A stretch of DNA of 32,000 nt from Fibrobacter succinogenes subsp. succinogenes S85 (GCF_000146505.1 NC_017448.1:3450001-3482000); one strand, 5' to 3'. Shown: positions 1 to 25,296, counted from the first letter of the stretch. A program made the numbers and translations. The notes: a model not told the origin generated them from the letters alone.

Positions 1-2483
1 TGAACGACATCCGGCCATTTATTGCCTTCGCTGAACCACTTTTTGCGTAACCTTAAAAGCTCGCTTTGCATGTCAAGTGCCGTGTTGCAAGCGCGTCTGG
101 CGTGGTCGTCGTATTTCATCGGGGCGCCAAAGAATGCGATAATGGCATCGCCTTCGTACTTGTCAAGCGTTCCTTTGTTCTTGGTCGTCAAGACGTCGGT
201 CATTGCGGTCAGGTATTCGTTCAAAAGTTCAACGAGCTTGCTTGCGCTTCCGATTTTTTCGGAGAATGTCGAAAATCCCTGGATGTCGGTGAAGTAGGCC
301 GTGATGTTGGATTCTTCGCCGCCGAGTTCCGGCATGTTACCTTCTGCCACCATTTCATCAATCAGTTCTGGCGAGATGTATTGTTTGAAGGAACTTTCGA
401 TGAATTTCTTTTCTTTGTTTTCGAAGTACGCCTGAACGACCATTGCAATGATGTTCGGTGTGATAATGGCGAGGAGTTGCTTGGAAACGCCGATATAAAT
501 ATTGTGCTTGAAACAAATGTAGGCGAAGAGCGTGTATAGAACGGCTATGCCGATTGTCAAAATTAGCGAAACAAAACTCCTGAAATAAACCCCGATGAGC
601 ATGCAAATGATGGCTAGCACAATGACTGCGATGCGCTGGTAATTTTCATTGAGGATTGTCATGTAGTCGTCCTCAAGGACGTTCTTGATGATGTTTGCGT
701 GGACGAGGATGGCGGGGATGTTTTCTTCGTGCGGACCGTTCACAATATCGAAAAGCGCCGAAACAGAAGACCCGAGAATGACCGTTTTCCCGGCATATTG
801 GTCAAGATTCTTGTGGTCTCTGTAAATGTCGTAGTACGAAATGTGCTTGAACGCTCTTGTTTCTGGCTTGAGATCGTTGAAACGGCCTTTGTACTTGATT
901 AGGAATCGCCCGTGGTCATTGATGGGAATTCTCTTGTACGGGCCGAAACGCAATTCTTCGCCGGGCTTGATGCTTGCAATTTGTTGGTCGCTTGCGTTAG
1001 AGATATCTTGCAGAATCTGGTTTGTGAAAAAGTGGATGGAGGCGGACCATTTGTTTTTGGCCTTGTCGTAGCTGATGTCCATGCTGCGGGAGAGGTGCTT
1101 GTGTTCTCCTATTTTCAGGTCCTTATAGGCGTATTCGTTTAAGTGGATGGTCTTGAGAACGCTGGGCGTAATATAGTTTTCATCATCGTCTTCATTCTTG
1201 ATGACGTAAACGCCTTCGGTCTCGTCGCTTTTGGTCATGGTAAAACCGCTATCCAGTTCGACGGATTCGCTAGTTTTGAGTTTGTCAAAGATGTTTTCGG
1301 GAAGCTTTCGTAGAACGTTAGAAAGCGTTGCACTCAGGTGCTGATTTTCTTCGACGAAAATGTTGAAAACGATTTGTCCGTCATTGTTACGGCTAACGCT
1401 AGTCTTGTATGAAGTTTCAACCTGGCTTGCTTTTTGTACCCCGCTTTCCTTGATTTGTTTCATTTTATCTCGTAGCGAGAGGAACATGGGGTAGGTGAAA
1501 TTCGGGAAAGTCGTGTGGTATTCGCCTACAGAGTCTCGGTAAATGCCGAAGGGCTTGCCGATGTCGATGTACTTTCCCATTTTAATTTGGATGTCTTTCG
1601 GATCCTTGTGGAACAGGTGCAAAATGGTCATCAGCGAGAGCGCACCGTAAATGCGCTGCGGAGCAAGTTTGTCTTCCTTGACGCGCGGGAACTTGTACAA
1701 AAGGTTGATTCTGCGTATGGTGCCATCATTGTCTGGATAGGCGTTTACAGCGCCAACGCGAGTCCCGGCATTGGCGAGTTCTGGGAAAACGTTGTCAAGC
1801 AGTGGTCTTGATTCAATTTCCTGTGGCTTGTCGGCCTGGTTCAACTCAAACGTTGATGAAAAGCCGACTTCTTTGGCGCGTTCCCAGGTGCTGAGGTTGT
1901 ACCAGTCGCTTTTGTTCCTGTAGTGCGTGGTGTCGTTCAGCAAAAAACTGACGATGCAGATGTTGGAGTTTCGCGTCGCTTCTACGAGCATGGAGTCGTA
2001 GTTGTAATAGGAATGGATTTGGGTGAACAATTTGACATGGCTTGTGTCGGGGTCAAGCTGCTTTAGAATTTCCTGGCACTGTTCTCCCTTTCTTTTTCCG
2101 AAGTCGGCATCCTTGAACAGAATATCAAATGCGATTGCCGCAGCGCCACCCTCTCCCAAGTTCTCGATAACCTTGGCGTGGATGGATCTGTCCCAGTTAT
2201 AGTAGTGTCCGAACTTTAACAGCGACTTTTCGTCAATATCGGCGATGATGATGTTCTGGTCGTTGTAGGGCGTACTCTCCATGATGACGCCGTCTTTTTC
2301 ACCGGTGGAGTCAATGACTTCGGTTGTCCACTTGAAAAATTGGTCGTAGAATATATTTTCTGCCGATTCTGCGATATAGTTGTTTTGCGAGTTACCGAAG
2401 ATGAGAGTGAGCAATACGGCGAGTGCTGAAAATGCGCTCCCGAAAAAAAGTTTCTTTTTGTTTTTTGAATTTTTCTGTGCCAT
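1..2483 (-). CDS. CHASE2-type membrane-bound class III adenylate/guanylate cyclase (3' end beyond window)
   Basis: Absent from the ORF track because no stop codon lies in the window. My reverse-strand translation from ATG (complement of 2481-2483) stays open to position 3. It reads MAQKNSKNKKKLFFGSAFSALAVLL, then a large extracytoplasmic-type region, then hydrophobic helices (IAVIVLAIICMLIGVYF, LILTIGIAVLYTLFAYICF, LLAIITPNIIAMVVQAYF). It ends with ITAYFTDIQGFSTFSE and LDKYEGDAIIAFFGAP, the cyclase-homology core. The CHASE2 label rests on architecture only. Confidence 0.85.
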   Translation of the reverse strand, partial: MAQKNSKNKKKLFFGSAFSALAVLLTLIFGNSQNNYIAESAENIFYDQFFKWTTEVIDSTGEKDGVIMESTPYNDQNIIIADIDEKSLLKFGHYYNWDRSIHAKVIENLGEGGAAAIAFDILFKDADFGKRKGEQCQEILKQLDPDTSHVKLFTQIHSYYNYDSMLVEATRNSNICIVSFLLNDTTHYRNKSDWYNLSTWERAKEVGFSSTFELNQADKPQEIESRPLLDNVFPELANAGTRVGAVNAYPDNDGTIRRINLLYKFPRVKEDKLAPQRIYGALSLMTILHLFHKDPKDIQIKMGKYIDIGKPFGIYRDSVGEYHTTFPNFTYPMFLSLRDKMKQIKESGVQKASQVETSYKTSVSRNNDGQIVFNIFVEENQHLSATLSNVLRKLPENIFDKLKTSESVELDSGFTMTKSDETEGVYVIKNEDDDENYITPSVLKTIHLNEYAYKDLKIGEHKHLSRSMDISYDKAKNKWSASIHFFTNQILQDISNASDQQIASIKPGEELRFGPYKRIPINDHGRFLIKYKGRFNDLKPETRAFKHISYYDIYRDHKNLDQYAGKTVILGSSVSALFDIVNGPHEENIPAILVHANIIKNVLEDDYMTILNENYQRIAVIVLAIICMLIGVYFRSFVSLILTIGIAVLYTLFAYICFKHNIYIGVSKQLLAIITPNIIAMVVQAYFENKEKKFIESSFKQYISPELIDEMVAEGNMPELGGEESNITAYFTDIQGFSTFSEKIGSASKLVELLNEYLTAMTDVLTTKNKGTLDKYEGDAIIAFFGAPMKYDDHARRACNTALDMQSELLRLRKKWFSEGNKWPDVV

Positions 2484-2585
2484 GACATGAAAAAGATAAT
2501 AATTGAGCGAAAAGTGTCATTTTTTGTAATAAAATAAGGAACTATAAAAGATTATATTTACAGAGGAAAATAGAGGAGCGAGTTT

Positions 2586-5684: not shown

Positions 5685-5709
5685 GCTTCCCTGAAAATTG
5701 TTTTAAATG

Positions 5710-5747
5710 AAAAAGCAACTCTATGGGAGTTGCTTTTTTTATTTTTT
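5710..5747 (+). terminator. Rho-independent terminator of ftsK
   Basis: AAAAAGCAACTC (5710-5721), loop TATGG, GAGTTGCTTTTT (5727-5738), followed by a T-run. Confidence 0.8.
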
Positions 5748-5795: not shown

Positions 5796-8720
5796 GTGAA
5801 AAAGTTGTTTTCAGAACAAAAAGAAATAAAAAGTCTTTCCGCTTATTTTGATAAGTTAGACCTCTTTTCTGAACGAATTGCCGTTGTCGACCATGACGGC
5901 GAACGGAATACGACATATCGGCAATTCTATGAAAACAGCAAGAAGGTGAACGCCTACCTTCGTAAAAAAGGGATTGGGAGTGAAGATTCGGTTGCAATCC
6001 ATGTCCCGCGCGGAATGGAATACATGGCTATTCGTGTGGGAGTCATTATGGCGGGGGCTGCCTGGGTCTCGCTAGAAGATATGATGGGGGTTGAACGTAT
6101 TGCCTTTGTCAAGAAAGACTGTAATTGCAAACTCGAATTCACCATGCAATACTGGGAAGAGGCGATGAAGGAAGTTCCCTGTGCCGAAATAAAAACAGCT
6201 AAGCCTCATGATCTTGCCTTTTACATTTACACCTCGGGCAGTACAGGAAAACCCAAGGGCTTGGCCCAGGAATACGGAATTTATAAAAATTTGATTGAAG
6301 GATGCTGTGGGTTCATGGAACCATATTCCAATCCGCCATCCCGGTTTGCGCATGTGATTCCTGAAAGTTATGTGGGCGGCGTCTATATTACCATGGGTGA
6401 ATTGTTTGTCGGAAATACAGTCCATGTTCTGTCTTTTAATTTTCTTAGGGATATAAAAGACCTTGCTCGGTATTTTGCAATAAACGGAATTGACACGACC
6501 TTTATGACTCCGCATTTCTTAAGGGCGATGCTGAAAATGCCTGGCTTTACGCTTAGGGCGGGTTTTACAGGCGGTGAAATTGTTTCTGATATTTATTCTC
6601 CTGAGTTTGATATAGTCAATATTTACGGCTCAAGTGAATTTGGGTACACCTCATGCCTTTTTACGCTGGATAAAAGCTACCGCAATACGCCCATTGGTTA
6701 TGCCACCTGCAATTCAGATATTGTCTTGATTGACGAAGATGGAAACGAAGCGGACGAGGGTGTTTTCTGTATTGCGCTTCCGTTTTTCAGAAGGTACAAT
6801 AAGGATTCCGAAAAAGACCAGTTCATTTTGCATAATGGGAAAAATTATTTTAAAACATCCGATTACGCCAAAAAAGACTCTGACGGAAAATACACCATTC
6901 TAGGTCGCATCGACAATATGGTGAAAATCAACGGGAACCGAGTTGATCCTTCCGAGATTGAATCAGCCGCAAAATCGGCATTGTCGCTTGAATTCTGCGT
7001 TGTAAAGGCTTTTGCAAAAAACGGCTTAGTAAGGCTCGGACTTTATTATAAAGATGAAAAAGAAATAGATGTTGCCGAAGCCGCTAAAAAATTGGAATCT
7101 TATCTTCCGATATTTATGATTCCCTCGTTTTTTGTCAAGCTGGATGAAATTCCTTTCAATGCGAATGGCAAGGTGGACAAGCTAGCCCTAAAAGAACCGG
7201 ATAATCCTGAAGACTTGTGCTACGTTGTACCGGAAAATGAATTGCAGAAAAAAATATGCGACCTTTTTGAGAAAGTCCTTGATGTAGACCGCAAAATAGG
7301 AATCGATGACGACTTTTTCTTTTTAGGCGGAGACTCTATACGCGCAATGGAACTTGTATCAGAAAGCCGCGATGTTGTAGAATCATTTTCTTTTAAGTTT
7401 GTCTATGGCGGACGAACTCCGCGTAAAATTGCAGAACTTGTTCAAAGGCAAAAAGCAGAAAATCATTTTCAAAAAGTTCCTGCTTTTTTGAGTGGTGTGC
7501 TTGAAAGAAAGGGCGTTCCTGTAAACGAGATGCAACTGAATTTCCTGAATCTTGATTTCAAGCATCCAGGAACAACAATGTTGAATCTTGCCTATAAGTT
7601 TAAACTTTCGGACGAAATTGGTTTGGATAAGTTTTCTGCCGCCCTTTCAAAGGAAATTGCGGCCCGTCCTGTTTTGTCCAGTGTCATTGAAAAACGGGGA
7701 CCCGAGTTTTATATTCGAAAACCCGCAGACAATTCCCACGAAATTCCTGTTGAGGAAATGAATGCCAGAGAACTGAAGATTGCCGAAGAAGAAATTTCCC
7801 GCCCGTTCAATTTAGACGGCTCTCCTCTTTTCAGATGTCGCCTTGTCCGTTCAAAAAACGAAAAATTTCTTCTTTTATGTGTTTATCATACTGTTTGTGA
7901 TGGCCTTTCGTTACAGCATTTTTTGAAAGATCTCTCCCGTGTTTACCATGGAGATGAACCCTCCAAGGATTATTTTTATCCGCTTCTTCAAAAGGATTAC
8001 GAACTGAGAAACTCAATGACATTTGAAGAAGATAGGGAATTCTTTATATCCCGCTACAGAAAAGAGAATTATGACGCCATTCCAAGGGTTGATTTTGATT
8101 TGAAAGAAAATGTAGATGGTCAAATCGCAAAGCCCTTTCCGTTCTCAAAAAATGAAGTGAAAGAATTCTGCGAAAAAATAAAAATAGGAGAGAATGCGTT
8201 TTATTGTGCCGCTTTTGCGTTGTCGGTTTGCCAGTACAACAATTCCAAATTAGTTCGGTTCGGTTGGGTTTGGAACGGCAGGAACGATGTAGAATCCATG
8301 AATTCGGTAGGCGTTCTTATTCGCGAGATTCCTATTGCTTTTTCGATGGAAAAAGAAAAAAGCCCTCGCGTGTATTTGGAAAATGCACAAAAACAGATTG
8401 AAGAAGGGATAAATCATGCGAGCCTTTCGTATTGCTTGGACGAATGGTTTATGCGAAAAAACGGGGCTGCAACGGTCATATTCCAAAACGATGTTTATGA
8501 TTATCGTGTTATAGATGGAATTATAAGTGGTGTGGAGGGAATCTTTTCGGATAAGTATCCTACAGCCTGCGAAAGTCCGCTGGATTTAGAAATTATTGAA
8601 AGTCCTGAAACTTTTGAGGCTCTTTTTGATTACAATGGTGCGTTGTATAAACCAGAAAGCATGGAAAAATTTGCCGAGATATTCGTTCAAAATTGTGAAA
8701 AACTACTGAAGGAGATGTAA
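5796..8720 (+). CDS. NRPS-like single-module enzyme: adenylation - carrier (T) - condensation
   Basis: A-domain motifs are YIYTSGSTGKPKG, NIYGSSEFG, FKTSDYA, GRIDNMVKINGNRVDPSEIE and NANGKVDK. Carrier motif is FFFLGGDSIRAMEL (Ser codon 7335-7337). The C-terminal condensation domain carries YHTVCDG (7884-7904). The track ORF starts at TTG 5730, inside the ftsK terminator. In-frame candidate starts are ATG 5751, GTG 5796 and TTG 5805; the start is unresolved. Confidence 0.85.
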   Translation: MKKLFSEQKEIKSLSAYFDKLDLFSERIAVVDHDGERNTTYRQFYENSKKVNAYLRKKGIGSEDSVAIHVPRGMEYMAIRVGVIMAGAAWVSLEDMMGVERIAFVKKDCNCKLEFTMQYWEEAMKEVPCAEIKTAKPHDLAFYIYTSGSTGKPKGLAQEYGIYKNLIEGCCGFMEPYSNPPSRFAHVIPESYVGGVYITMGELFVGNTVHVLSFNFLRDIKDLARYFAINGIDTTFMTPHFLRAMLKMPGFTLRAGFTGGEIVSDIYSPEFDIVNIYGSSEFGYTSCLFTLDKSYRNTPIGYATCNSDIVLIDEDGNEADEGVFCIALPFFRRYNKDSEKDQFILHNGKNYFKTSDYAKKDSDGKYTILGRIDNMVKINGNRVDPSEIESAAKSALSLEFCVVKAFAKNGLVRLGLYYKDEKEIDVAEAAKKLESYLPIFMIPSFFVKLDEIPFNANGKVDKLALKEPDNPEDLCYVVPENELQKKICDLFEKVLDVDRKIGIDDDFFFLGGDSIRAMELVSESRDVVESFSFKFVYGGRTPRKIAELVQRQKAENHFQKVPAFLSGVLERKGVPVNEMQLNFLNLDFKHPGTTMLNLAYKFKLSDEIGLDKFSAALSKEIAARPVLSSVIEKRGPEFYIRKPADNSHEIPVEEMNARELKIAEEEISRPFNLDGSPLFRCRLVRSKNEKFLLLCVYHTVCDGLSLQHFLKDLSRVYHGDEPSKDYFYPLLQKDYELRNSMTFEEDREFFISRYRKENYDAIPRVDFDLKENVDGQIAKPFPFSKNEVKEFCEKIKIGENAFYCAAFALSVCQYNNSKLVRFGWVWNGRNDVESMNSVGVLIREIPIAFSMEKEKSPRVYLENAQKQIEEGINHASLSYCLDEWFMRKNGAATVIFQNDVYDYRVIDGIISGVEGIFSDKYPTACESPLDLEIIESPETFEALFDYNGALYKPESMEKFAEIFVQNCEKLLKEM

Positions 8721-9019
8721 TGGAAATCAGGTCAAACTTAAATGGCGATGAATTGAAAGTAGAACTTTCGGGGGAGTTGAATGCGGTGACGGCTCCAGAG
8801 CTTTCGACATACCTTGCTCCGCATCTCGAAAAGATAAAGTCCCTTGTTTTTGATTTCAAGGAGTGCGACTTTGTTTCGTCGGCAGGAATCCGCGTGTTGC
8901 TTTCTTCTTTCAAGACTTTGAAAAAGAATCAGGGCAATATGCGACTAGAAAATGTGGGCCCGAATTTTAAGGACGTTCTCGAAGCGACCGGGCTAGATGT
9001 GGCGTTTGGAATTTTGTAA
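8720..9019 (+). CDS. STAS-domain protein (SpoIIAA/RsbV-like anti-sigma-factor antagonist)
   Basis: 99 aa of typical STAS size and pattern. FVSSAG (Ser codons 8876-8881) sits where the phospho-acceptor DSSG motif lies. The ATG overlaps the upstream TAA by 1 nt (TAATG). Confidence 0.8.
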   Translation: MEIRSNLNGDELKVELSGELNAVTAPELSTYLAPHLEKIKSLVFDFKECDFVSSAGIRVLLSSFKTLKKNQGNMRLENVGPNFKDVLEATGLDVAFGIL

Positions 9020-9027
9020 CAGAAGCA

Positions 9028-10758
9028 ATGTTCAAGACATTTCTTTCAAGAAAGTTTTTTTCGCTCTTGCTATCGAGTACAATTGGTCAACTCGTTATTA
9101 CGGTGCTGACCCTTTCAGACTCGATGATTGCTGGTGTAATGCTCGGTGAAGATGCCGTTGCTGCCATTTGCCTAGTTGTCCCAGCTTATTCGTTGGCTGG
9201 TTTTTGGGGATGTCTGGTTGCCTTGGGTGTCCCCATTATTTATAACCGGGCCATGGGAGAGTTTGACAAGAAAAAGGCCGATCGTTGTTTTGCGTTTGGT
9301 TTATTTATGTCTCTCTTGATGGGAGTAATTCTGTTTGTCACCTTTATGGTAATCGGGGATGCTTATCTTCGCTTTTATGAACCGTCTTCAATTGTTTTCG
9401 GTGCGGCAAAGGATTATTTCTTTTGGTACAAGTTTACTTTTTTACTGTTGCCGCTTTATACTCTGATGTATGTGATGGTCCTTGCCGATGGCGATGAAAC
9501 ATTGTCAATGGTTTCAGGAATCGTGCAGATTGTAGGGAACATCGTCTGCTCAATTGTTCTTGTAAAATTTATCGGTATTGCGGGAATTGGACTTGGCTCG
9601 TTTATTGGAACCGTTGCGGCGATACTCGTTTCTTTTGCACATCTTCTTCGTCAAGGCAATTCGCTAAAGCTTGGCTTTTACTTCTCGTTTAGGTGGCTTA
9701 TCGATGTTGTAAAATATAGCGCGGTTGATGCGGGCTCCTATCTTTTTTTGGCGTTTTACATTGCTGTGATGAACCGTTTTATCACCTTCGCTTATGGTCC
9801 CGAAATGCTTGTGCTTGGTGCTATAGTCCTTTTTATAAAAGAGATACAGGTCTTATTTGATGGTGTGGGGGAGTCATTTTCTCCGTTGATGAATATCTAC
9901 TTGGGCGAAGAATCCTATGATGCCGTCAAAAAATGTTATCGCCTTTCTCAAAAAACAGCTGTTGTCGAAGGTCTTGCGTTGACGCTGTTGCTGCTTTTGT
10001 TGGCGCCCTATGTTGTGAAACTTTATGATATCTCTGATCCGTTGATGTTTTCTTATGCGGTTGGTGGTGCTCGAATTGAAGTTCTGGGGCTTGTATTCTT
10101 GAGCTTGTTATACCTGTTGAGCTCTTACTATTTGCTCATAGACAAGATTAAACTTGGATTTATGATGAGTGCGCTCCGGGATGTACTTGTGGTGACTCCG
10201 GTCTGTGTGTTTTTGGGGTATTTCTTTGGGGTGTATGGAATGTTTGCCGGTATCGCCGTTAGCCCAGTGTTGGCTTATGTGATATCGGTTCTATATATCC
10301 GCATTCGTTATGGAGCCGAAAATTATCCATTGCTGCTTGCGGATAAGCTGAAAGGCTTCAAACATAAATTTTACGAGTTGAAACTGGACCCGGCATCAAT
10401 TGTTAAAACTCAGCAGCAGGCAGAAAAGTTCCTTTGTGAAAATGGGGTTGACCGTAAGATCGTCTCAAAGGTGAAGTTATTGATAGAAGACATTTATATG
10501 CTGATTTATGAAAAAAATGGTGCCGACAAAGCGGTCTATGCAGAGTGTACTGTTATTATTCGCGAAACGGGCGTACAGATTATAACCAAGGATGACGGTA
10601 TATTGTTCGATTTGTCCAGTGACGATGTCATCGCCGGGTCAATTGTTGAATTTATGGTTTCGGGCTATATGGAAAAATTGAAGGAAAATAAAAAATACTT
10701 GACGACCATGAGCTATAACCGGAATACATTCAAGGTAAACAACGAGGTGCGAGTATGA
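9028..10758 (+). CDS. MATE/MOP-family polytopic transporter fused to a C-terminal anti-sigma/GHKL-like (RsbW/SpoIIAB-like) domain
   Basis: About 440 aa of TM helices with a MATE-like N-terminus (LSDSMIAGVMLGEDAVAAICLVVPAYSL...NRAMGEFDKKKA). The cytoplasmic tail from 10357 reads KVKLLIEDIYMLIYEKNG...VQIITKDDGILFD, which fits the RsbW N-box/G1 layout but lacks the N-box Asn and a G2 GxGxG. Confidence 0.7.
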   Translation: MFKTFLSRKFFSLLLSSTIGQLVITVLTLSDSMIAGVMLGEDAVAAICLVVPAYSLAGFWGCLVALGVPIIYNRAMGEFDKKKADRCFAFGLFMSLLMGVILFVTFMVIGDAYLRFYEPSSIVFGAAKDYFFWYKFTFLLLPLYTLMYVMVLADGDETLSMVSGIVQIVGNIVCSIVLVKFIGIAGIGLGSFIGTVAAILVSFAHLLRQGNSLKLGFYFSFRWLIDVVKYSAVDAGSYLFLAFYIAVMNRFITFAYGPEMLVLGAIVLFIKEIQVLFDGVGESFSPLMNIYLGEESYDAVKKCYRLSQKTAVVEGLALTLLLLLLAPYVVKLYDISDPLMFSYAVGGARIEVLGLVFLSLLYLLSSYYLLIDKIKLGFMMSALRDVLVVTPVCVFLGYFFGVYGMFAGIAVSPVLAYVISVLYIRIRYGAENYPLLLADKLKGFKHKFYELKLDPASIVKTQQQAEKFLCENGVDRKIVSKVKLLIEDIYMLIYEKNGADKAVYAECTVIIRETGVQIITKDDGILFDLSSDDVIAGSIVEFMVSGYMEKLKENKKYLTTMSYNRNTFKVNNEVRV

Positions 10759-12215
10759 TTCAATATGGCATTACGGAAACCATTTTTGCTGAATTGTCCC
10801 TGTTTTCAATATTGTTGCTTTTATTCTTGCTGTATAACAATATAGCTCTGTATAAAATAAGTATTAAAGATAAACTTTCTATTGTCCTTGTGACGACAAT
10901 CGTATTGTCTATATTTGAATGGATTTGGCACTATGTAGATGGAAATGCGAATTTTCGAGTGCTGAGCTATATTTGTGCTGATGTTTACTCCGTCTGTTTG
11001 ATGATTGCTGTATCGATGTTTACGCTGTTCAGCCTGGAACGTTTTGAACTGAATTTTAATCCAAAAAAATTGAATGCTTTATTTTTTGTAACACCTACTA
11101 TTTTGACTCTTCTTTTGTGCCTCACAACGCCTTGGACTGGTTTAGTGTATTCCGTTGATGAGGGCGGATCAATTCAGTATAAGGAATTGTTTGACTTCTT
11201 TCTTGTCCCTGTATATTTTCTTTATATGTTATTTTCAATTTTGCTAGCAATTTACTATGTGATAATGCATCGAAAAAAGAAAAAAGAGAAAGTGGTTTAT
11301 GCAAGAAACCTGTTGATATTTGCTGTATTGACAGTGTGTGTCCAGGCTTTTCAGACCTATATTTTTAGAAATGATGGAAATTATTTGATAACAAGTCTTT
11401 CTTGGGCGATAGGCTTTGTATTCTTTACGACGTACGTGAATACGGATCGATTTGTTAAAAATCGTGAAAAAATTGCTGCCGTAGAATCGGATTTGGCTGT
11501 CGCTACAAATATCCAGTTGGCAGCCCTTCCTGCGGTAGAAAATGCCTTGCCGACGCACCCTGAGGTCTGTGTTTCTGCATCCATGACTACAGCAAAAGAA
11601 GTGGGTGGGGATTTCTATGATTTCTTTGAAATTGATGATACTCATGTTTGCTTTGTCATTGCCGATGTTTCGGGCAAGGGCGTTCCTGCGGCGTTGTTCA
11701 TGATGGTGGTGAAGACCATGATCCGTGACCATGCTTCCATGAAGCTTTCTACGGCGGAAATCTTCAATGATGTGAACCGCCTCTTGTGCGAAAACAATGC
11801 CGAAGAAATGTTTGCGACCGCCTGGATTGGTATTCTCGATACTAAAACCAAAATCATGAAATGCACCAATGCAGGGCATAATGCCGTGTGCTTTGCCAAA
11901 AAAGACGGCAAGTTCGAGTTCCTAAGGCAACGCCATGGTGTGTTCCTTGCCGGTTTTGACACTACGCAATATAAAGAAGCCGAAATTCAGCTTGAAAGCG
12001 GGGATTGTTTGTTCCTCTATACCGATGGTCTTACCGAGGCTCACAATGCGTCCTCTGAACTTTACGGCGAAGAACGGCTTTTAGAAAAATTAAATTCCAT
12101 TGAAATTCGTGGCGGTGAAAAATTCTTGAGGGAAATCTCGGATGACGTGAATGTATTCTCTGAAGGAACAGATCCCTTTGATGACCTTACAATGATGGTC
12201 CTCAAGGTGGACTAA
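10755..12215 (+). CDS. Polytopic membrane PP2C-type serine phosphatase (SpoIIE/RsbU family)
   Basis: ATGA start/stop overlap with the upstream gene. N-terminal about 230 aa is multi-TM. The C-terminal domain has GGDFYDF, FVIADVSGKGVPAA, LYTDGLTEA and FDDLTMMVLK, the SpoIIE-family metal-binding Asp positions. Confidence 0.9.
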   Translation: MIQYGITETIFAELSLFSILLLLFLLYNNIALYKISIKDKLSIVLVTTIVLSIFEWIWHYVDGNANFRVLSYICADVYSVCLMIAVSMFTLFSLERFELNFNPKKLNALFFVTPTILTLLLCLTTPWTGLVYSVDEGGSIQYKELFDFFLVPVYFLYMLFSILLAIYYVIMHRKKKKEKVVYARNLLIFAVLTVCVQAFQTYIFRNDGNYLITSLSWAIGFVFFTTYVNTDRFVKNREKIAAVESDLAVATNIQLAALPAVENALPTHPEVCVSASMTTAKEVGGDFYDFFEIDDTHVCFVIADVSGKGVPAALFMMVVKTMIRDHASMKLSTAEIFNDVNRLLCENNAEEMFATAWIGILDTKTKIMKCTNAGHNAVCFAKKDGKFEFLRQRHGVFLAGFDTTQYKEAEIQLESGDCLFLYTDGLTEAHNASSELYGEERLLEKLNSIEIRGGEKFLREISDDVNVFSEGTDPFDDLTMMVLKVD

Positions 12216-14902: not shown

Positions 14903-16006
14903 ATGGTGAATAAAATTATTATTGCCTTGAGTATGGGACTCACGGCGGGGGTCTTGGCACAGGATTTTTGCAATGCAGCTAAACATACAGGTGCAAGCAA
15001 AAAAGTGAATGGAAACGAAGTGAGCTCGTTCAACGGTGTCGGTTACGAGCTTTGGTACGATAGGGCTACTTCGGGTTCGCTTACAATTTATGAAGACGGA
15101 TCCATGGCATGTTCTTTCCAGAATGCTGGAGACTACCTTTGCCGTGCGGGGCTTTCGTTCGATAGCGACAAGAAGTATAACGAACTTGGCGGCGATATGC
15201 TTGCGGAATTCAAGCTCGTGAAACAGAATATCAATGGTGCCGATTACTCCTATGTCGGCGTCTATGGTTGGATGGAAGAAGTCTCGAAATCCCCGAGCAA
15301 ACTGGTCGAATATTATGTTGTCGATAACTGGCTGACGGGGTGGAGGCCTGGCGATTGGGTCGCTAGCCATAAGATGGGCGATTACACAATCGATGGTGCC
15401 AAATACTCCGTTTATTGGGGTGAACATACGGGGCCGGCCATCAAGACACAGGGCAATACGACTTTTTTGCAGTATTTCAGCATTCGTGAAAATGCCCGTG
15501 ATTGCGGAGTCATCAATATTAGCGCTCACATGAGACAGTGGGAAAAGCTGGGCATGGAAATGGGTAAGCTCTACGAAGCCAAGGTGCTTGGCGAAGCGGG
15601 GAGCATGAGTAACGGCGTTTCCGGTACGGCCGATTTTCCGCATATAAAGGTTTATGTCAAAGGCGACGAAGTTCCGTCGTCCAGTTCCGTTGCTTTAAGT
15701 TCAAGTTCTGTGGTGTCGAGTTCCTCTGAAACTGTGCCGAGTTCGTCATCGGAGAAGGTCGCGGAATCTTCGAGTAGCGTTGACGGTTCTTCGAGTTCGG
15801 GGACCGATGCGATTCCGTTTATGGCTCAGCTCTTTGACAAGGCGGGTGTTTATCAGGTGTTCGATATGCAAGGGAATTTCCTCGGCAAGGTTGAGCTGAA
15901 GAATGGCTTGTCGCTTAAGCAGGCTGTGGCAAGCAAGTTTGCCCGCTCGTCCGTTTATCTGGTCAAGCGTGGGGCCTTTGCCAAGACGATTGCTGTCGAG
16001 CGATAA
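14903..16006 (+). CDS. Secreted GH11 endo-1,4-beta-xylanase with Ser-rich linker and C-terminal sorting-type domain
   Basis: ATG 14903 lies 5 nt after GGAGG; the track start is TTG 14888. Signal peptide is MVNKIIIALSMGLTAGVLAQ. GH11 hallmarks are YELW, YGW...LVEYYVVDNW, TFLQYFSIR and YEAKVLGEAG (the two catalytic Glu contexts). The tail ...YQVFDMQGNFLGKVEL...VYLVKRG resembles FCB-group C-terminal secretion domains. Confidence 0.88.
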   Translation: MVNKIIIALSMGLTAGVLAQDFCNAAKHTGASKKVNGNEVSSFNGVGYELWYDRATSGSLTIYEDGSMACSFQNAGDYLCRAGLSFDSDKKYNELGGDMLAEFKLVKQNINGADYSYVGVYGWMEEVSKSPSKLVEYYVVDNWLTGWRPGDWVASHKMGDYTIDGAKYSVYWGEHTGPAIKTQGNTTFLQYFSIRENARDCGVINISAHMRQWEKLGMEMGKLYEAKVLGEAGSMSNGVSGTADFPHIKVYVKGDEVPSSSSVALSSSSVVSSSSETVPSSSSEKVAESSSSVDGSSSSGTDAIPFMAQLFDKAGVYQVFDMQGNFLGKVELKNGLSLKQAVASKFARSSVYLVKRGAFAKTIAVER

Positions 16007-16668
16007 TGCGTTTGTTCCCTCATTTTTTTCTTTTCGTTCCAAAGTTGTCCATAACTAGGAATTTTTATCATTTGAATATCTGGATATTTGTCTTCCATCC
16101 AAGGAAAAAAGTGACCACACACAACGAGGGCGATGGGATTTTGTCTTTGAATCATTTCATCCAAACCAAGAATGAAATGACGAAGTCCCTCCTTGTCTGT
16201 TGAAATGCCGTTGGTGGTAATCGCAAGTACTGAATTTTGAGGCAACCCCTCCCAACACCATTCAAAACTGTCTTGAGTACTCCAACTAGCAGTAGGTATC
16301 ACGTTTATTCCTTTTTGTTGCCAGAAATAAGCTATTATACGATTACGATAACAGTTCCATTTCTGTCTGTTAGTTGAATAGTCTCTATAAAGGCTGTAAT
16401 CGGTACTAATCATTCCTTCAAGCTTTTGCAAGGGAGCGACATTTGCTAAGGGATCGTTCCAAAATTTATTTTGGTGAACGTCTTTGACAAAGCAATGGCC
16501 CCAAAGTTTTAATCCGTCTTTTGGGTCAATGATGTTAATGGGTAAGCATTTTTTGATATTTGGAATTGTTTGTGTGGGAGATAATTGGGGAACATGTAGT
16601 GACCCGACAAGAGGGGCTCCCTGTTGTATGAGCAAATGATCTAGAGTTATTTGGTCTTCTTTTTTCAT
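15955..16668 (-). CDS. DUF4417-family protein
   Basis: ISTDYSLYRDYSTNRQKWNCYRNRIIAYFWQQKGINVIPTASWSTQDSFEWCWEGLPQNSVLAITTNG matches my memory of the DUF4417 core (PDFS.Y.D.P...QIWN.YRNR...W...G..VIP...W). The last 52 nt overlap the 3' end of the convergent xylanase gene. Confidence 0.65.
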   Translation of the reverse strand: MKKEDQITLDHLLIQQGAPLVGSLHVPQLSPTQTIPNIKKCLPINIIDPKDGLKLWGHCFVKDVHQNKFWNDPLANVAPLQKLEGMISTDYSLYRDYSTNRQKWNCYRNRIIAYFWQQKGINVIPTASWSTQDSFEWCWEGLPQNSVLAITTNGISTDKEGLRHFILGLDEMIQRQNPIALVVCGHFFPWMEDKYPDIQMIKIPSYGQLWNEKKKMREQTHYRSTAIVLAKAPRLTR

Positions 16669-16686
16669 AGTTTATTTTGTGTGAGA

Positions 16687-17178
16687 TTATGCGTAAGTAT
16701 GCAATTCTAGTATTCGTCGCCGGTTCCCGTTTTTATACCAATATTCAACCTTGTCGCTCGGTTTTAAAATTCCTTTGCGGAGAGCTTCTTTGTATCCTTC
16801 AATAACCGATTCGACAGCCTTTTTCCCTTCAGCAATTGATTTGTGCTTGGAAAGCAGTATTATTTTGCTGTTTTCCTTGTGCTCGTAAAATTTAGACTCT
16901 GCAATTGTCGCTTTCATTTGTTTCGCTGCTTTTGCGAGGCTGCTGTTGCAAATTGTGTTGGCATTGTCTCCTTCAACACCTTTAACTTCTACTGGAGCAC
17001 CTTCAACCATCAGATCAGCTCTTTTATGATCGTTCGGCGTTTCTTTTAAAAAGGCGACATACTTGCCCTTATCAAGATAGTATTCAGCCACCTCAATTGC
17101 GTTTTTGTCCTGACGGGGGTTCCTGCTGTATTGAGGAAGCCTTTCCTTTTGTACGGCCTGATTGACCACCATATCCAC
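16687..17178 (-). CDS. PD-(D/E)xK-fold, toxin-like small nuclease (resembles CdiA-CT / Tox-REase tRNase-type domains)
   Basis: Motif RADLMVEGAPVEVKG gives D55-x8-E64-V-K66 (16981-17016). It is preceded by NAIEVAEYYLDKGKYVAF. GTG start at 17178, with an alternative ATG at 17172. Confidence 0.55.
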   Translation of the reverse strand: MDMVVNQAVQKERLPQYSRNPRQDKNAIEVAEYYLDKGKYVAFLKETPNDHKRADLMVEGAPVEVKGVEGDNANTICNSSLAKAAKQMKATIAESKFYEHKENSKIILLSKHKSIAEGKKAVESVIEGYKEALRKGILKPSDKVEYWYKNGNRRRILELHTYA

Positions 17179-17194
17179 CCATGTTTTACTCCTT

Positions 17195-17217
17195 TGTTCG
17201 CCTTATGGCGAACATTA
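17195..17217. promoter_or_regulatory. Palindrome TGTTCGCC-TTAT-GGCGAACA plus shared 11-mer GGCGAACATTA (operator or RNA hairpin)
   Basis: Perfect 8-bp inverted repeat at 17195-17214, in the 52-nt gap upstream of the PD-(D/E)xK gene. The 11-mer at 17207-17217 recurs at 18801-18811. Confidence 0.5.
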
Positions 17218-17230
17218 CGGTTAAAAAATT

Positions 17231-17698
17231 TTATTTTTCTTGTTTGTATATTTTTACGGGATTCTGCATTTCTGAATTTCTATAAAGTAACATTCGTGCG
17301 GAATTTACCCTTAGATAACGAATTTGTACCTTATCCTCATTCAATTTGAGAAAATCAGAAACAGTTATGTTTCCAGATATAGTATAGGCATTGTCTGCTG
17401 AACGGCTGTCAAATTCAATAAAGGTGATGTCATCATTGCTTGGTTCGCAAGAAAAAGATTCTTCAGGTTTTACAGGAACCATTCTATAATTGTACTTTGC
17501 AGAGATGAAATCCCATCTTCCGCAAACAGGGCAGCGCCAGACTTCCACTTCTTCGAAACGGAGAGGGAGGTCTTTTAGCATTACGTTTTCTGTTATGGCT
17601 TTTTTTATATCATCCATTCTAAATAAAGAAAGTTCTATTTGATTGATGCTGTCGGAATTCCGCATTCCGTACCCACAAAAACATCTCATGGATCCCAT
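17231..17698 (-). CDS. Hypothetical protein with split Zn-ribbon-like Cys pairs
   Basis: CFCGYG near the N-terminus and WRCPVCGRW at about residue 55. The ATG is 1 nt after the ImmA stop, so it belongs to the same operon. No family recognised. Confidence 0.55.
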   Translation of the reverse strand: MGSMRCFCGYGMRNSDSINQIELSLFRMDDIKKAITENVMLKDLPLRFEEVEVWRCPVCGRWDFISAKYNYRMVPVKPEESFSCEPSNDDITFIEFDSRSADNAYTISGNITVSDFLKLNEDKVQIRYLRVNSARMLLYRNSEMQNPVKIYKQEK

Positions 17699-17699
17699 A

Positions 17700-18389
17700 T
17701 TATTCCTCCAGCAGATTTAATTGAACGAGTCTAATGCGGGCTGCACTCACGCTCACTTCATATATTTGACAAATTGTATTGATAAAAGCAATTGATATTT
17801 TGTCGTTTTTTGACAACTTAAAGACAGTTGCTGTTTGAAAGAATTTCTTGAAAAGCAAGAACAGAGTTATCCTTGGCATTAGTAGTGCTCCAGCACCATA
17901 GTTGGCTTGGCGTTCCAACCACCAAATTGGTTTATGCAAATAAGAACTAATACTGACGATGTTGGAACTTGCGGCAATAGCGTTAGAATGATGCATAAAA
18001 TAATACGGATGCATTTTGATGTGGATGACTTCGTGTGCTGCCGTAAATCTGATTTCTACAGGAGACCGCGATTCGTCAACGACAATTGTTGAATTCTCGA
18101 TAGGAATGGGCTGCACTTTCTTTGTTTCACTATCAATAGACCAAATGACCATTTTTGAAAATGCGGTTATCCCTTTAGCTTGAGGATAGGCGATATCTCG
18201 CATTTCTAACTTGAAGCCGAATTCATTAGATTCAATCCATTCTTCAATAGGGACGCATTGTGGGTAAAGCAATATCTCTGGATGACACTCCCTCAAGTAG
18301 TTTTCCACAGCATCTTCAATTTGGGCGTAACTGACACGGTAAACGCCCCTTTCGTCCATGGAAATATGAGAGTAGTCAATAAAGTCCAT
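17700..18389 (-). CDS. ImmA/IrrE-family (M78, COG2856) zinc metallopeptidase
   Basis: HEVIH (18021-18035, minus strand) followed by ERQANYGAGALLMP, the family signature. The start overlaps the XRE stop by 1 nt. Confidence 0.85.
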   Translation of the reverse strand: MDFIDYSHISMDERGVYRVSYAQIEDAVENYLRECHPEILLYPQCVPIEEWIESNEFGFKLEMRDIAYPQAKGITAFSKMVIWSIDSETKKVQPIPIENSTIVVDESRSPVEIRFTAAHEVIHIKMHPYYFMHHSNAIAASSNIVSISSYLHKPIWWLERQANYGAGALLMPRITLFLLFKKFFQTATVFKLSKNDKISIAFINTICQIYEVSVSAARIRLVQLNLLEE

Positions 18390-18766
18390 TATTTGCCTTT
18401 TTGAATAATGTTAATGATATTTCGCCATTGATCGTCTGTAATCTTAGAATTTTTAGCAGAACGTAACGCGATGGCTGCAAGAGGGGTGGCCTTGATGTAT
18501 TCGGTCAGGTCTGTTGGGGCTACATCGCGCCTTGCTGTAGCGGACAAATCAAAAAGTTGATTCCTGTCATTTTCAGAAAGATTTAGAATGGATGCTATTT
18601 TTTCGAGAAATTCCTTTTCGATGGGATTTTTCTTTCCTTTTTCAATATCACAAACATAAGATGGAGCCTTTCCTAGCATATCTGCAAATTTTCGTAACGA
18701 GATGCCTAACTCTCGACGTTTTTCAGAAATAAAAAATCCAAATGAATCTAATGCTTTTGCAGTCAT
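18389..18766 (-). CDS. XRE-family helix-turn-helix transcriptional regulator
   Basis: RRELGISLRKFADMLGKAPSYVCDIEKGKKNP is a classic Cro/C1 HTH. ATG 18766 lies 5 nt after AGGAG; the track start is TTG 18781. Confidence 0.88.
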   Translation of the reverse strand: MTAKALDSFGFFISEKRRELGISLRKFADMLGKAPSYVCDIEKGKKNPIEKEFLEKIASILNLSENDRNQLFDLSATARRDVAPTDLTEYIKATPLAAIALRSAKNSKITDDQWRNIINIIQKGK

Positions 18767-18786
18767 GATTGCTCCTATCAAAAAAA

Positions 18787-18811
18787 AATGTTCTGCGTTC
18801 GGCGAACATTA
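18787..18811. promoter_or_regulatory. Inverted repeat AATGTTC-N10-GAACATT with nested GTTCG-G-CGAAC; candidate XRE operator or leader hairpin
   Basis: Lies between the predicted -10 and the XRE start. On the minus strand the hairpin is followed by T8 (A8 at 18781-18788). Contains the 11-mer GGCGAACATTA (18801-18811). Confidence 0.5.
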
Positions 18812-18814
18812 AAC

Positions 18815-18843
18815 AATATATCTTATTTGGATGGCTACGTCAA
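18815..18843 (-). promoter_or_regulatory. Candidate promoter of the XRE-ImmA operon
   Basis: The minus strand reads TTGACG (18843-18838), 17-nt spacer, TATATT (18820-18815). Confidence 0.5.
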
Positions 18844-18973
18844 TAGGATAAACGCATTTTTTTTGAAAAAAATCGATTTTTTGCCAAAATAGTCATTTTT
18901 CACCCTGGACTCAGTTTCGAGGTGCCGAAATCGTAACTTTCCTTTTAATATCGGGTACTTTGGTTTTTCCTCA

Positions 18974-18986
18974 TTTTTTTTTTTTT
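18974..18986. repeat. Homopolymeric T13 tract flanked by CCTCA / TGAGG
   Basis: Counted directly: 13 consecutive T in the divergent intergenic region. Confidence 0.9.
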
Positions 18987-19038
18987 GAGGCTCGGTTTTG
19001 TGTTTTTCCTGAACTAAAATGCCGATTTTATATTATTT

Positions 19039-19066
19039 TTGCCAATGACATAGAAAAGAGTAATTT
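19039..19066 (+). promoter_or_regulatory. Candidate promoter for the leader and methyltransferase operon
   Basis: TTGCCA (19039-19044), 16-nt spacer, TAATTT (19061-19066). The predicted start falls at the first leader hairpin. Confidence 0.3.
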
Positions 19067-19070
19067 GTCT

Positions 19071-19300
19071 CTTGTTCTCAACCTGAAATCGCCAAATTTC
19101 AACAACCCGAGAACAAGGCGAACGCTCACGCATGGATAGTCCGTATAGGGCTATTCATCGCATTGCTGTATCCGAGGCATAAGTCCCGGTTATTTGGCTA
19201 TGTGCCCATTTCGGGGCGTGGGTCGTGCGTTTATCGGGTTTAGGCTTTGGCGAGCCTCAGGTTGGTAAGCGTTACGACTCACGCCTTTCTTGTTGCTTGC
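19071..19300 (+). promoter_or_regulatory. GC-rich structured 5' leader / candidate cis-regulatory or small RNA upstream of the methyltransferase operon
   Basis: Hand-folded stems: 19071-19079/19109-19117; 19134-19142/19148-19156; and an 18-bp stem 19215-19232/19267-19285 with three G-U pairs, capped by AGGCT/AGCCT (19242-19257) and followed by TTTCTTGTT. No ORF of 60 aa or more in this stretch. Confidence 0.4.
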
Positions 19301-19381
19301 GATTGATTTTTTCGGCAACATTTTTAAGGTTTGAAATTTCGCTGACTTGCGAGGGCTAGAGGCATAAACAAGGAGTTGCTT

Positions 19382-22030: not shown

Positions 22031-22035
22031 TCAAC

Positions 22036-25150: not shown

Positions 25151-25236
25151 ATTTTGTTTCAATAGCGGCTTTAGATGAAGCAATTCGAAAGAATGTCAGC
25201 CCGGCTGACGATATGAAATGAAAAATCAAACTATAG

Positions 25237-25260: not shown

Positions 25261-25296
25261 AATGTTGCCTAAATTGCGGAAAAAGATTTAGACCTC

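Follow-up and report, generated by a model that had tools for sequence, protein, structure and literature searches.

What does a partner switch control when its anti-sigma-like component is part of a transporter? This question is raised by four coupled ORFs on the + strand (5796-12215) of a 32,000-nucleotide stretch of Fibrobacter succinogenes DNA, referred to as a whole as the window. They encode an A-T-C NRPS, a STAS protein, a DinF-type MATE transporter with a cytoplasmic tail and a PP2C phosphatase. Partner switching is textbook sigma factor control, with very few non-transcriptional outputs described so far. We lean, somewhat beyond even chances, towards reading the locus as a horizontally mobile small-molecule cassette, whose hub would be a DinF-type MATE exporter with a kinase-dead RsbW/SpoIIAB-like C-terminus and whose partner switch would be re-targeted to that exporter.

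Layout and genomic setting of the cassette

The cassette is a low-GC island flanked by ftsK and ispE. GC over 5.5-12 kb is 0.36-0.45, compared with 0.50-0.55 in both flanks, in agreement with the initial annotation, which had described the segment as AT-richer than its surroundings. The features are as follows, all on the + strand.

5709..5739, +, intrinsic-terminator-like hairpin (14-bp stem and T-run) that ends ftsK, identified by scan and sequence
5796..8720, +, single-module A-T-C NRPS, 974 aa, identified by Pfam domains and motifs; approximate domain limits A 5865-7205, T 7251-7442, C 7512-8711
8720..9019, +, single-domain STAS protein of the anti-sigma-factor antagonist type, 99 aa, identified by Pfam and TIGR00377
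9028..10332, +, membrane domain of the DinF-subfamily MATE, aa 1-435, aligned over its full length to 12-TM DinF-BH and PfMATE
10333..10758, +, cytoplasmic tail of the MATE, aa 436-576 plus stop (141 aa), with a predicted RsbW/SpoIIAB-like GHKL fold and degenerate ATP-binding motifs
10755..11474, +, N-terminal polytopic membrane domain of the PP2C, 6-7 TM with short loops
11475..12215, +, linker and SpoIIE/PP2C phosphatase domain (Pfam match aa 294-485, ~11634-12209)

The linkage reported for the four ORFs was confirmed base by base: NRPS and STAS are joined by TAATG (stop 8718-8720, ATG 8720-8722), an 8-nt gap (CAGAAGCA, 9020-9027) separates STAS from MATE, and MATE and PP2C overlap in ATGA (10755-10758). 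The same spacing is repeated in a relative (L001; 7693/7693, 7992/8001, 9731/9728), and the junctions are therefore conserved rather than a product of chance. The hairpin marks the upstream limit of the cassette transcription unit; with junctions that overlap or nearly abut and a terminator upstream, the genes probably form an operon. The NRPS start at 5796 is a GTG rather than an ATG, and an equally good alternative is TTG at 5805, which follows a Shine-Dalgarno sequence (AGAAGGTG) at 7-9 nt. A longer ORF from TTG-5730 was rejected because its start falls within the ftsK terminator hairpin.

The transporter tail and the phospho-switch components

The MATE matched PF01554 (MatE) in two stretches at 48.9 bits, above the Pfam cutoff, and the DinF-BH structure 4lz6 over aa 10-424 (E 1e-12). 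PRK09575 matched aa 6-421 (E 1.4e-24) at 87 bits, below the curated cutoff of that model (445 bits). These alignments place the transporter among genuine DinF-type MATEs. A flippase identity (MurJ/Wzx) was rejected, as the full-length match of the membrane domain is to the DinF/PfMATE drug/metabolite exporters.

The tail gave no Pfam match even at E<=10, HATPase_c_2 (PF13581) included, and no PDB sequence match. By sequence alone its resemblance to RsbW is weak (E ~1 in PDB, 15% probability in hhalign), and HMMER and hhalign align RsbW on it in the same register. The tail was modelled twice independently with AF2 (pLDDT 66 and 80.6, core 92-98). In Foldseek comparisons with known structures, the top 18 and 21 matches of the two models were exclusively SpoIIAB, RsbW, UsfX and LvrC (prob 1.0, TM up to 0.74), with SiaB among the weaker matches. 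An adjoining MATE paralogue in locus L063 has a tail with a Pfam-significant HATPase_c_2 match (34.9 bits, cutoff 27.4). The models thus indicate that the tail has an anti-sigma/GHKL fold, and the "MATE-anti-sigma-like" call of the initial annotation stands at the level of fold but not at that of sequence profiles.

The N-box Asn of GHKL proteins binds Mg. In the tail, this column is M, L, V or I in 79/79 family representatives (Leu57 in the window). The G2 box reads [SG][YF]NRN, its glycines absent from all 79 (NRN at the G2 GxG in the window), and only the G1 DxG of the ATP boxes is kept. Since the N-box Asn and the G2 glycines are missing throughout the family, the tail is probably a pseudokinase, that is, a kinase-dead binding domain and not an RsbW-type kinase. 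Its invariant positions (tail numbering) are E52, E/D53, N62, D87, G89, N129 and R130, with conservation of 97-100% among the 79 representatives for E52, N62, G89, N129 and R130. The E52/N62/D87/G89/N129/R130 set could be a ligand pocket rather than a STAS interface.

The STAS protein matched PF01740 (61 bits) and TIGR00377 (73 bits), both above cutoff. Its predicted phospho-serine is S54 (codon 8879-8881), within CDFVSSAGIRVLL, and the motif CD[FY]VSSAG[IL]RVLL is invariant across 31 distinct sequences. The phosphatase domain matched SpoIIE (PF07228) at 164 bits with all four metal-binding motifs intact (GGDFYD, DVSGKG, YTDGL, DDLT), as they are in 32-33/33 orthologues. Invariance of the serine motif and intact metal motifs suggest that the phospho-switch has been retained. 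The membrane domain of the PP2C matches no known family; it is conserved alongside the cassette across phyla and specific to these cassettes.

The window's cassette contains no kinase gene. As the tail is probably no kinase, the kinase that phosphorylates STAS is missing from this cassette, and STAS phosphorylation in this organism is thus an assumption. L027-29 and L039 have canonical HATPase_c_2 genes within the cassette, and the N, G1 and G2 boxes of these genes are intact. The opposing kinase would be such an RsbW-type protein rather than the tail, with its gene part of the cassette in some lineages and, in this genome, presumably at another locus.

Gene neighbourhoods and the question of a sigma factor

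The MATE-tail fusion family comprises 497 representatives, nearly all of 555-590 aa with the tail C-terminal, from Fibrobacter, Lachnospiraceae, Clostridia and Treponema; the cassette is also present in a cultured strain, Fibrobacter sp. UWB13. The neighbourhood census covered 26 de-replicated clusters, 14 of them with full flanks. STAS and PP2C were each present in 10 of these 14 contexts, always together, and an NRPS likewise in 10; all three accompanied the MATE-tail in 7 contexts and none of the three in 1. The four genes thus occur together in different phyla, and their order varies: at least five arrangements were seen among Fibrobacter, Lachnospiraceae and a Treponema-labelled bin. Islands often gather unrelated cargo and the region is low in GC, as would suit a chance gathering of four genes with no functional link. 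However, such a gathering is hard to square with recurrence across phyla, with a STAS-PP2C pair that always stays together beside the MATE-tail, with overlapping junctions and with a cassette-specific PP2C membrane domain; the census effectively refutes it, and we assign it next to no weight.

The MATE-tail was found with STAS and PP2C without an NRPS (L008, L039, L063) and with an NRPS without STAS or PP2C (L011, L031-33, L049-50, L065), a pattern that points to the MATE-tail as the hub of the cassette. In 4/14 full-flank contexts the tail is kept without STAS or PP2C, so it must also have a STAS-independent role, for example in dimerisation, ligand binding or NRPS docking. If docking were its role, the tail would hold the NRPS at the pump and unphosphorylated STAS would compete with the NRPS, so that the coupling of synthesis to export would be switched, not pump activity. 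The frequency of NRPS neighbours, their persistence where STAS and PP2C are missing, which would make tail function independent of STAS, and an overlap of the NRPS and MATE genes in L011 are all consistent with docking. We nevertheless consider it unlikely: MATE-tail, STAS and PP2C form trios with no NRPS nearby, and MATE-tails that are 80% identical occur with NRPSs that share only 35% identity, making a co-evolved docking surface less plausible.

No sigma-70-family gene was found within 8-10 kb in any of 66 loci, Firmicute ones included, and no SigF-like or ECF-like ORF in the 32-kb window; the earlier observation that no sigma factor gene is adjacent therefore extends to all of them. This bears on whether the tail is a membrane-tethered anti-sigma factor, sequestering a sigma factor encoded elsewhere, with the MATE as a flux or substrate sensor. 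By releasing the sigma factor, STAS and PP2C would then alter transcription, with the cassette as one possible target. Sigma factors are the canonical output of STAS/RsbW/PP2C sets, and the closest structures to the tail are anti-sigma factors, UsfX among them. Firmicute sigB/sigF-type operons, however, are normally contiguous, and a distant sigma factor leaves both the conserved transporter fusion and the conserved NRPS linkage unexplained; we find this account improbable. The proposal that a partner-switch domain was welded to a transporter instead is favoured by fold, co-occurrence and lack of a sigma factor, with the reservation that the tail does not have canonical kinase residues. It withstood two refuting conditions named in the initial annotation, lack of co-occurrence in other genomes and a tail unrelated to anti-sigma/GHKL folds.

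The NRPS and proposed control of export

AMP-binding (142 bits), PP-binding and Condensation all matched the NRPS above Pfam cutoffs, which bears out its description as an A-T-C enzyme; LgrA was its best PDB match. The A3 (YTSGSTGKPKG), T (GGDS) and C (YHTVCDG, xHxxxDG intact) motifs and the A10 Lys (K517) are present, and the C domain has diverged strongly (its best PDB match has E 7e-11). Asp235 of A domains binds the substrate alpha-amino group. The specificity code of this A domain is VGYHFGIYTK, and position 235 is Val in the window and V, A, S or I in all cassette NRPSs, in a register set by alignment to GrsA and to LgrA, the latter from the PDB match. The lack of Asp235 makes an alpha-amino acid an improbable substrate, so that the aminoacylated product previously envisaged is unlikely and an acyl or keto-acyl product more likely. 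To our knowledge, neither VGYHFGIYTK nor SAISxSLSTK is an assigned code.

Within Fibrobacter, the NRPS has been swapped (35% identity, another specificity code), whereas STAS, MATE and PP2C keep 73-94% identity. Such an exchange is hard to reconcile with a pump that tightly recognises a single product. The NRPSs of the cassette fall into two specificity classes, which are interchangeable. In relatives, the cassette includes a PLP aminotransferase as well as a decarboxylase resembling NspC (338 bits against TIGR01047, short of that model's cutoff); the window's own cassette has neither. The tie between an NRPS class and the decarboxylase suggests acyl-polyamine-type products.

These partners also bear on a Dlt-like alternative, in which no free metabolite would be secreted: the A-T-C enzyme would acylate a membrane- or surface-bound acceptor, the MATE would move the modified carrier and the switch would adjust the chemistry of the cell surface. 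The A domain gets good scores from DltA models, MATE-tail paralogues in L065 lie between GT_STM0557_N glycosyltransferase-like genes, L008 has a Polysacc_synt/MatE neighbour, and DUF1302, LolA-like and MMPL lipid-transport genes adjoin several cassettes. However, most cassettes have no glycosyltransferase, the decarboxylase and aminotransferase point to soluble polyamine-type chemistry, and the membrane domain is not of the MurJ/Wzx kind. We give envelope modification little credence.

We therefore return to the re-targeted switch. The NRPS would activate a carboxylic acid other than an alpha-amino acid and load its own carrier domain, and its terminal condensation domain would join the acid to a free amine or alcohol. 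Judging from gene adjacency, the MATE would export the product. STAS unphosphorylated at Ser54 would bind the RsbW-like tail and alter transporter activity, much as RsbV and SpoIIAA act on their anti-sigma partners, with the pump instead of a sigma factor as output. The 6-7-TM PP2C would dephosphorylate STAS-P on a membrane-sensed signal or through contact with the pump. Export gating by STAS binding is thus proposed by analogy. That a phospho-STAS switch on a kinase-dead MATE domain gates the release of an NRPS-made acyl-amine is a tentative proposal, which we hold at somewhat less than even chances; it would make this the first partner switch known to act on a membrane pump itself.

If true, acyl-amine release would be gated by a membrane signal through a dedicated 7-TM PP2C, both in gut Firmicutes and in fibre degraders that abound in the rumen, and the tail would be a natural case of a GHKL pseudokinase serving as a docking module. 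A family of ~500 clusters with an anti-sigma-like domain in a transporter would add post-translational export control to the known outputs. The cassette points to a small-molecule pathway, as yet uncharacterised and shared horizontally, in Fibrobacter, the main rumen cellulolytic bacteria, and Lachnospiraceae, and acyl-polyamine-type products, if made, could serve competition or signalling on plant fibre.

No description of such a system was found in the literature. The Bacillus modules RsbV-RsbW-RsbU/P and SpoIIAA-SpoIIAB-SpoIIE share with the cassette a STAS antagonist with a conserved phospho-serine loop, a SpoIIE-family PP2C, membrane-anchored as SpoIIE is, and a GHKL-fold partner, SpoIIAB and RsbW being the best structural matches of the tail. 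They differ in that the GHKL component of the cassette is fused to a 12-TM MATE and lacks the N-box Asn and G2 glycines, and in that the cassette has no linked sigma factor and is embedded among biosynthetic genes. UsfX, the anti-SigF protein of Mycobacterium tuberculosis, is not known to have kinase activity. It also has an RsbW fold, is among the top fold matches (PDB 8ih8, 8jzt) and binds STAS antagonists, the role proposed by analogy for the tail; unlike the tail, which is part of a pump with no linked sigma factor, it is soluble and sequesters SigF. VibH joins the free amine norspermidine in vibriobactin, a precedent for terminal or free-standing condensation. VibH-like condensation and NspC/FslC-type decarboxylases resemble the A-T-C enzyme with its intact xHxxxDG and the decarboxylase and aminotransferase of relatives, although the cassette A domain lacks Asp235 and its C domain is very divergent.

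Phospho-STAS logic is aimed at non-sigma targets in SiaABCD of P. aeruginosa (a diguanylate cyclase) and SypE/SypA of V. fischeri (reviewed in PMC8256260), and in HenR/All4160 of Anabaena, where a biosynthetic enzyme, a glycosyltransferase, is directly controlled (bioRxiv 10.64898/2026.04.08.717354). In all three the kinase is active, whereas the tail is probably kinase-dead, and there is neither a transporter fusion of the anti-sigma-like domain nor an NRPS link. SLC26/SulP STAS domains and MlaB of the ABC transporter MlaFEDB are cytoplasmic regulatory or auxiliary transporter elements, a precedent for a STAS fold serving a transporter (PMC8256260; PMC5016091). In those systems, STAS is either a domain of the transporter or a partner of its ATPase, and neither a GHKL protein nor a PP2C takes part; the cassette topology is inverted, with the anti-sigma-like partner on the transporter and STAS free and probably phospho-regulated. 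TciR of Vogesella, a REC and RsbW-like fusion with conserved kinase residues, regulates indigoidine, a single-module NRPS product; no RsbV homologue is present, and no cognate sigma factor was identified (PMC12826045). TciR thus resembles the cassette in an RsbW-like domain in an unusual fusion that is genetically tied to a single-module NRPS product, but it is a soluble response regulator, whereas the cassette has a transporter as the fusion partner and contains STAS as well as PP2C.

Composition of the cassette

The proteins encoded by the four plus-strand genes at window 5796-12215 each belong to a known family, namely NRPS, STAS, DinF-type MATE and SpoIIE-PP2C.

Genes of the cassette and its flanks
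Upstream flank: ftsK
First ORF, within 5796-12215, plus strand: NRPS with AMP-binding, PP-binding and Condensation matches (Pfam/NCBIfam)
Second ORF, 5' edge at TAATG 8718-8722, plus strand: STAS (Pfam STAS; TIGR00377, anti-sigma-factor antagonist)
Third ORF, plus strand: MATE, with MatE over residues 1-430 and ~140 C-terminal residues (the tail) without a match
Fourth ORF, plus strand: PP2C, with SpoIIE/PP2C over the last 190 residues and ~240 hydrophobic residues N-terminal to the phosphatase
Downstream flank: ispE, tRNA-Gln, rplY, pth

The junctions described in the initial annotation were all verified (TAATG at 8718-8722, an 8-nt gap at 9020-9027 and ATGA at 10755-10758), as was its AT-rich segment, the GC content being 0.36-0.45 in the cassette versus 0.50-0.55 in both flanks. 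Because a strong terminator hairpin 3' of ftsK (5709-5739) overlaps TTG 5730, this codon was ruled out as the NRPS start, which is placed at GTG 5796 or at TTG 5805, the latter positioned behind the Shine-Dalgarno AGAAGGTG. The source is a Fibrobacter succinogenes-like genome, and its nearest relative, the metagenome-assembled genome RUG13674, encodes a MATE protein with 98% identity. In PADLOC, none of the four cassette proteins matched a defence system.

DinF-BH and PfMATE matched the MATE membrane domain along its entire length, and a flippase identity (MurJ/Wzx) was dropped in favour of a DinF-type MATE. Among solved structures, LgrA was closest to the A domain of the NRPS, whose specificity positions, aligned to GrsA and LgrA, read VGYHFGIYTK and fall into the code class [VA]G[YF]x[FY]G[VI]Y[PT]K. 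A second code class, SAISxS[LI]STK, occurred only together with a decarboxylase and a class I/II aminotransferase; nearest to this decarboxylase is the carboxynorspermidine decarboxylase NspC (338 bits, under the equivalog cutoff of 409). Asp235 was absent from every cassette NRPS, the carrier serine and an xHxxxDG motif were present, and the C domain was very divergent. From these sequences we infer that the enzyme would join an acyl unit other than an alpha-amino one to a free amine, the acceptor being of polyamine type in the class-2 clusters, and that the MATE would export the product.

The MATE tail as a probable degenerate anti-sigma-kinase domain

No match to the tail was found in a Pfam scan at E<=10 or in a PDB sequence search, and a tail-family profile run against the PDB retrieved de novo helical repeat proteins only, plus RsbW at E=1.1; sequence alone cannot settle the fold. 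Word-indexed protein searches with the tail or its profile gave short fragments only, and full-length members were obtained solely from an exhaustive profile search, which yielded 497 cluster representatives, and from a second search with a full-length profile. For the metagenome scan, one alignment (A2) was too diverse and another (A1) worked. Nearly all full-length members were 555-590 aa long and had their tail at residues ~425-570, so that the fusion is a conserved family instead of a chance event. Databases name these proteins 'MATE family efflux transporter' or 'hypothetical protein' and nothing more specific.

An AlphaFold2 model of the tail built from 12 sequences (pLDDT 66) had a beta-alpha-alpha-beta-beta-loop-alpha-beta topology, and a second model from 23 diverse sequences (pLDDT 80.6, core 92-98) had the full Bergerat-type topology. 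In Foldseek searches of the PDB, the first 18 matches of the first model were all SpoIIAB, RsbW and UsfX, and the first 21 of the second model added only LvrC, by its RsbW-like domain (probability 1.0, 125-139 aligned columns, TM up to 0.74); SiaB, the RsbW domain of Rv1364c and histidine-kinase domains ranked lower. With only anti-sigma kinases among the top matches, the predicted structures support the relation to the anti-sigma/GHKL fold that the initial annotation had suggested. Sequence-level support for this fold, independent of the models, comes from one related locus, L063, where a second MATE encoded directly after MATE-tail, PP2C and STAS genes has a C-terminus matching Pfam HATPase_c_2 at 34.9 bits. 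This 591-aa protein (L063:11615-13390), whose C-terminal match is Pfam-significant, has an intact N-box (CVEELTTNAVEHG) and G2 (AGIGI), and the G1 Asp is changed to His. The same contig carries a further, separate STAS-PP2C-HATPase_c_2 trio upstream.

HMMER and hhalign placed RsbW and the tail family in the same register, in which the conserved tail residue E/D53 corresponds to RsbW Glu49, tail DDGILFD to the RsbW G1 box DEGDSFD, and tail Leu57 to the RsbW Mg-ligand Asn53. Among 79 tail-family representatives, Asn occurred in none (0/79) at the N-box column or those adjoining it, G2 GxG was replaced by [SG][YF]NRN, and E52, N62, G89, N129 and R130 were 97-100% conserved. A joint alignment showed ExxxN and GxG in canonical kinases and the L063 MATE tail at the very positions occupied by ExxxL and NRN in the window tail. 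The tail is probably not a kinase, and given the loss of N-box and G2 together with these invariant residues, we read it as a binding domain of GHKL descent that has an invariant constellation of its own.

Partner genes and a possible switch on the pump

To survey the neighbourhood, 65 loci were gathered from genome and metagenome collections, and their ORFs were labelled by phmmer. De-replication at 85% identity left 26 MATE-tail clusters, 14 of which had at least 4 kb of DNA on each side. STAS and PP2C were each found in 10/14 of these contexts, always as a pair, and an A-T-C NRPS also in 10/14; four kept the tail without STAS or PP2C, and one (L010) lacked STAS, PP2C and NRPS. All three partners lay beside the MATE-tail gene in 7/14, so that the grouping seen in the window does recur in other genomes. 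A merely coincidental adjacency is contradicted by this census and effectively excluded.

Gene orders around MATE-tail genes
Fibrobacter, including cultured strain UWB13: (decarboxylase-aminotransferase)-NRPS-STAS-MATEtail-PP2C
L024-26: STAS-aminotransferase-NRPS-MATEtail-PP2C
Lachnospiraceae and related contigs (L009, L030, L038, L041, L064): MATEtail-PP2C-STAS-NRPS
No STAS/PP2C (L011, L031-33, L049-50, L065): NRPS-MATEtail
No NRPS (L008, L039, L063): MATE-MATEtail-PP2C-STAS

The varied orders and contents thus mark the MATE-tail as the hub, which pairs independently with a regulatory couple (STAS and PP2C) and with a biosynthetic enzyme. In Fibrobacter, comparison of L001-L007 and L012-L021 with window 5796-8720 showed that the two NRPS classes (~35% identical) replace each other, and that the STAS, MATE and PP2C genes downstream of them keep 73-94% identity. 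A less likely rival reading makes the tail a docking site for the NRPS, with STAS competing with the NRPS for it; the pairing of tail and NRPS where STAS and PP2C are missing speaks for it, and the loci in which the tail has STAS and PP2C and no NRPS speak against it.

The loci yielded 31 distinct STAS proteins, every one of which keeps the motif CD[FY]VSSAG[IL]RVLL. The predicted phospho-site of the window STAS is S54, placed there by alignment to SpoIIAA Ser58 and RsbV Ser56. The PP2C motifs GGDFYD, DVSGKG, YTDGL and DDLT were present in the window protein and in 32-33 of 33 orthologues; the 6-7-TM N-terminal domain had no family match and has a recognisable orthologue in Firmicute cassettes. 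Standalone canonical HATPase_c_2 kinases were found inside the cassette in four loci, directly after PP2C in L027-29 and also in L039.

RsbW-type kinases (HATPase_c_2, E 1e-16 to 1e-21)
L027:11899-12324
L028:11905-12324
L029:8251-8676
L039:11509-11919

As their N, G1 and G2 ATP-binding boxes are all intact, these cassettes hold a real kinase and a degenerate MATE tail. No such standalone kinase occurred within 8-10 kb in Fibrobacter succinogenes-type loci or in the window. A sigma-70-family ORF was likewise absent from the window and from every locus collected, which extends the earlier observation that no sigma factor gene is adjacent, and a search of the window ruled out a hidden sigma factor or kinase. 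The lack of a sigma factor speaks against the less likely alternative that the tail, with its anti-sigma-kinase-like predicted fold, still sequesters a distant one.

The best-supported reading is a partner switch re-targeted to the pump. Unphosphorylated STAS would bind the kinase-dead RsbW-like tail and alter transport, the 7-TM PP2C would set the phosphorylation state of STAS on a membrane-level signal, and a canonical kinase would counter PP2C, either from inside the cassette, as certain lineages have it, or, in the window organism, in trans. Retention of the tail without STAS or PP2C, the lack of a kinase in the window cassette and the reuse of the same pump with different NRPSs weigh against this switch. 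The wiring resembles the Rsb and SpoIIA modules and the non-sigma partner switches SiaABCD, SypE/SypA and HenR/All4160; unlike in these, the GHKL-fold partner belongs to a transporter, is degenerate and is NRPS-linked. STAS-transporter links are known from SLC26/SulP and MlaB, but with the opposite topology. Neither a MATE/anti-sigma fusion nor this cassette was described in the literature searched, in agreement with the initial annotation, which knew of no such system; a co-culture paper on F. succinogenes UWB7 concerns fungal NRPSs and other efflux pumps.

Several loci carried additional genes. DUF1302, DUF1329/LolA-like and MMPL/RND-like genes recurred just downstream of several cassettes on the opposite strand, and may form an outer-envelope export set for a lipid or hydrophobic compound. 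In a further, less likely rival reading, the system would modify the envelope instead of secreting a metabolite. The accessory proteins U181 and U272 had no family match, U181 showing only a weak TMEM164 match.

Accessory genes at related loci
L005:11185-16792, L007, L011:11274-15690, strand opposite to the cassette: DUF1302/LolA-like/MMPL set
L011:10737-11282, L032:10417-10965, L027:12325-12900: U181, ~180-aa polytopic membrane protein (TMEM164, E 0.004)
L002:3876-4694, L003:2713-3534, L013:8706-9527: U272, ~272-aa predicted lipoprotein (signal peptide and LTGC lipobox)

U181 comes after MATE-tail in loci that lack STAS/PP2C, and after the kinase in L027-29. Some Fibrobacter loci have the lipoprotein gene upstream of the NRPS; elsewhere it adjoins a second, SiaA-like PP2C (~535 aa). 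At L054:3-1040, upstream of a distant MATE-tail gene (~39% identical to the window protein full-length, 31% over the tail), a 345-aa protein joins a SAM-methyltransferase-like domain to a C-terminal STAS, a fusion hinting that STAS can bring further enzymes to the tail of the pump. At L065:1-17443, the genes for two MATE-tail paralogues of 569 and 597 aa are interleaved with a pair of GT_STM0557_N glycosyltransferase-like genes, beside an A-T-C NRPS and a 2499-aa protein without a Pfam match; STAS and PP2C are absent there. L006, a contig binned as Treponema, has an additional STAS gene upstream and a cassette MATE-tail 81% identical to the Fibrobacter protein. Separate from it, a partial protein from a Treponema sp. 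MAG (P0018) is 55% identical over the tail. Either there was recent horizontal transfer between phyla of the rumen, or the sequences were mis-binned.

Other features of the window

A second low-GC island (GC 0.35-0.41) at 15955-26354 resembles a defence or mobile island. It is an insertion between the genes for GH11 xylanase and IMPDH, because IMPDH comes directly after the xylanase gene in Fibrobacter sp. UWB13. Besides the genes listed below at 19376-26354, the island holds DUF4417, two small ORFs without known family and an M78/IrrE-like peptidase.

Further features of the window
1-2516, minus strand: CHASE2-domain adenylate/guanylate cyclase gene, divergent from ftsK, running off the left edge
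19376-22030: MmeI-family type IIL restriction-modification enzyme
22036-23973: DEAD/ResIII helicase
23954-25150: T5orf172/MUG113 protein
25410-26354: PDDEXK_2 transposase-like gene
28021-30889, plus strand: three consecutive ORFs (368, 249 and 297 aa), no Pfam match

The seemingly non-coding, ORF-free 2-kb stretch at 540-2586 is really the body of the minus-strand cyclase gene. The third of the consecutive ORFs (29996-30889, plus strand) was reported as wholly within an amidase ORF (30026-31462, minus strand); the strong match of the amidase to a GatA-type Pfam family makes it the likelier real gene of the two.
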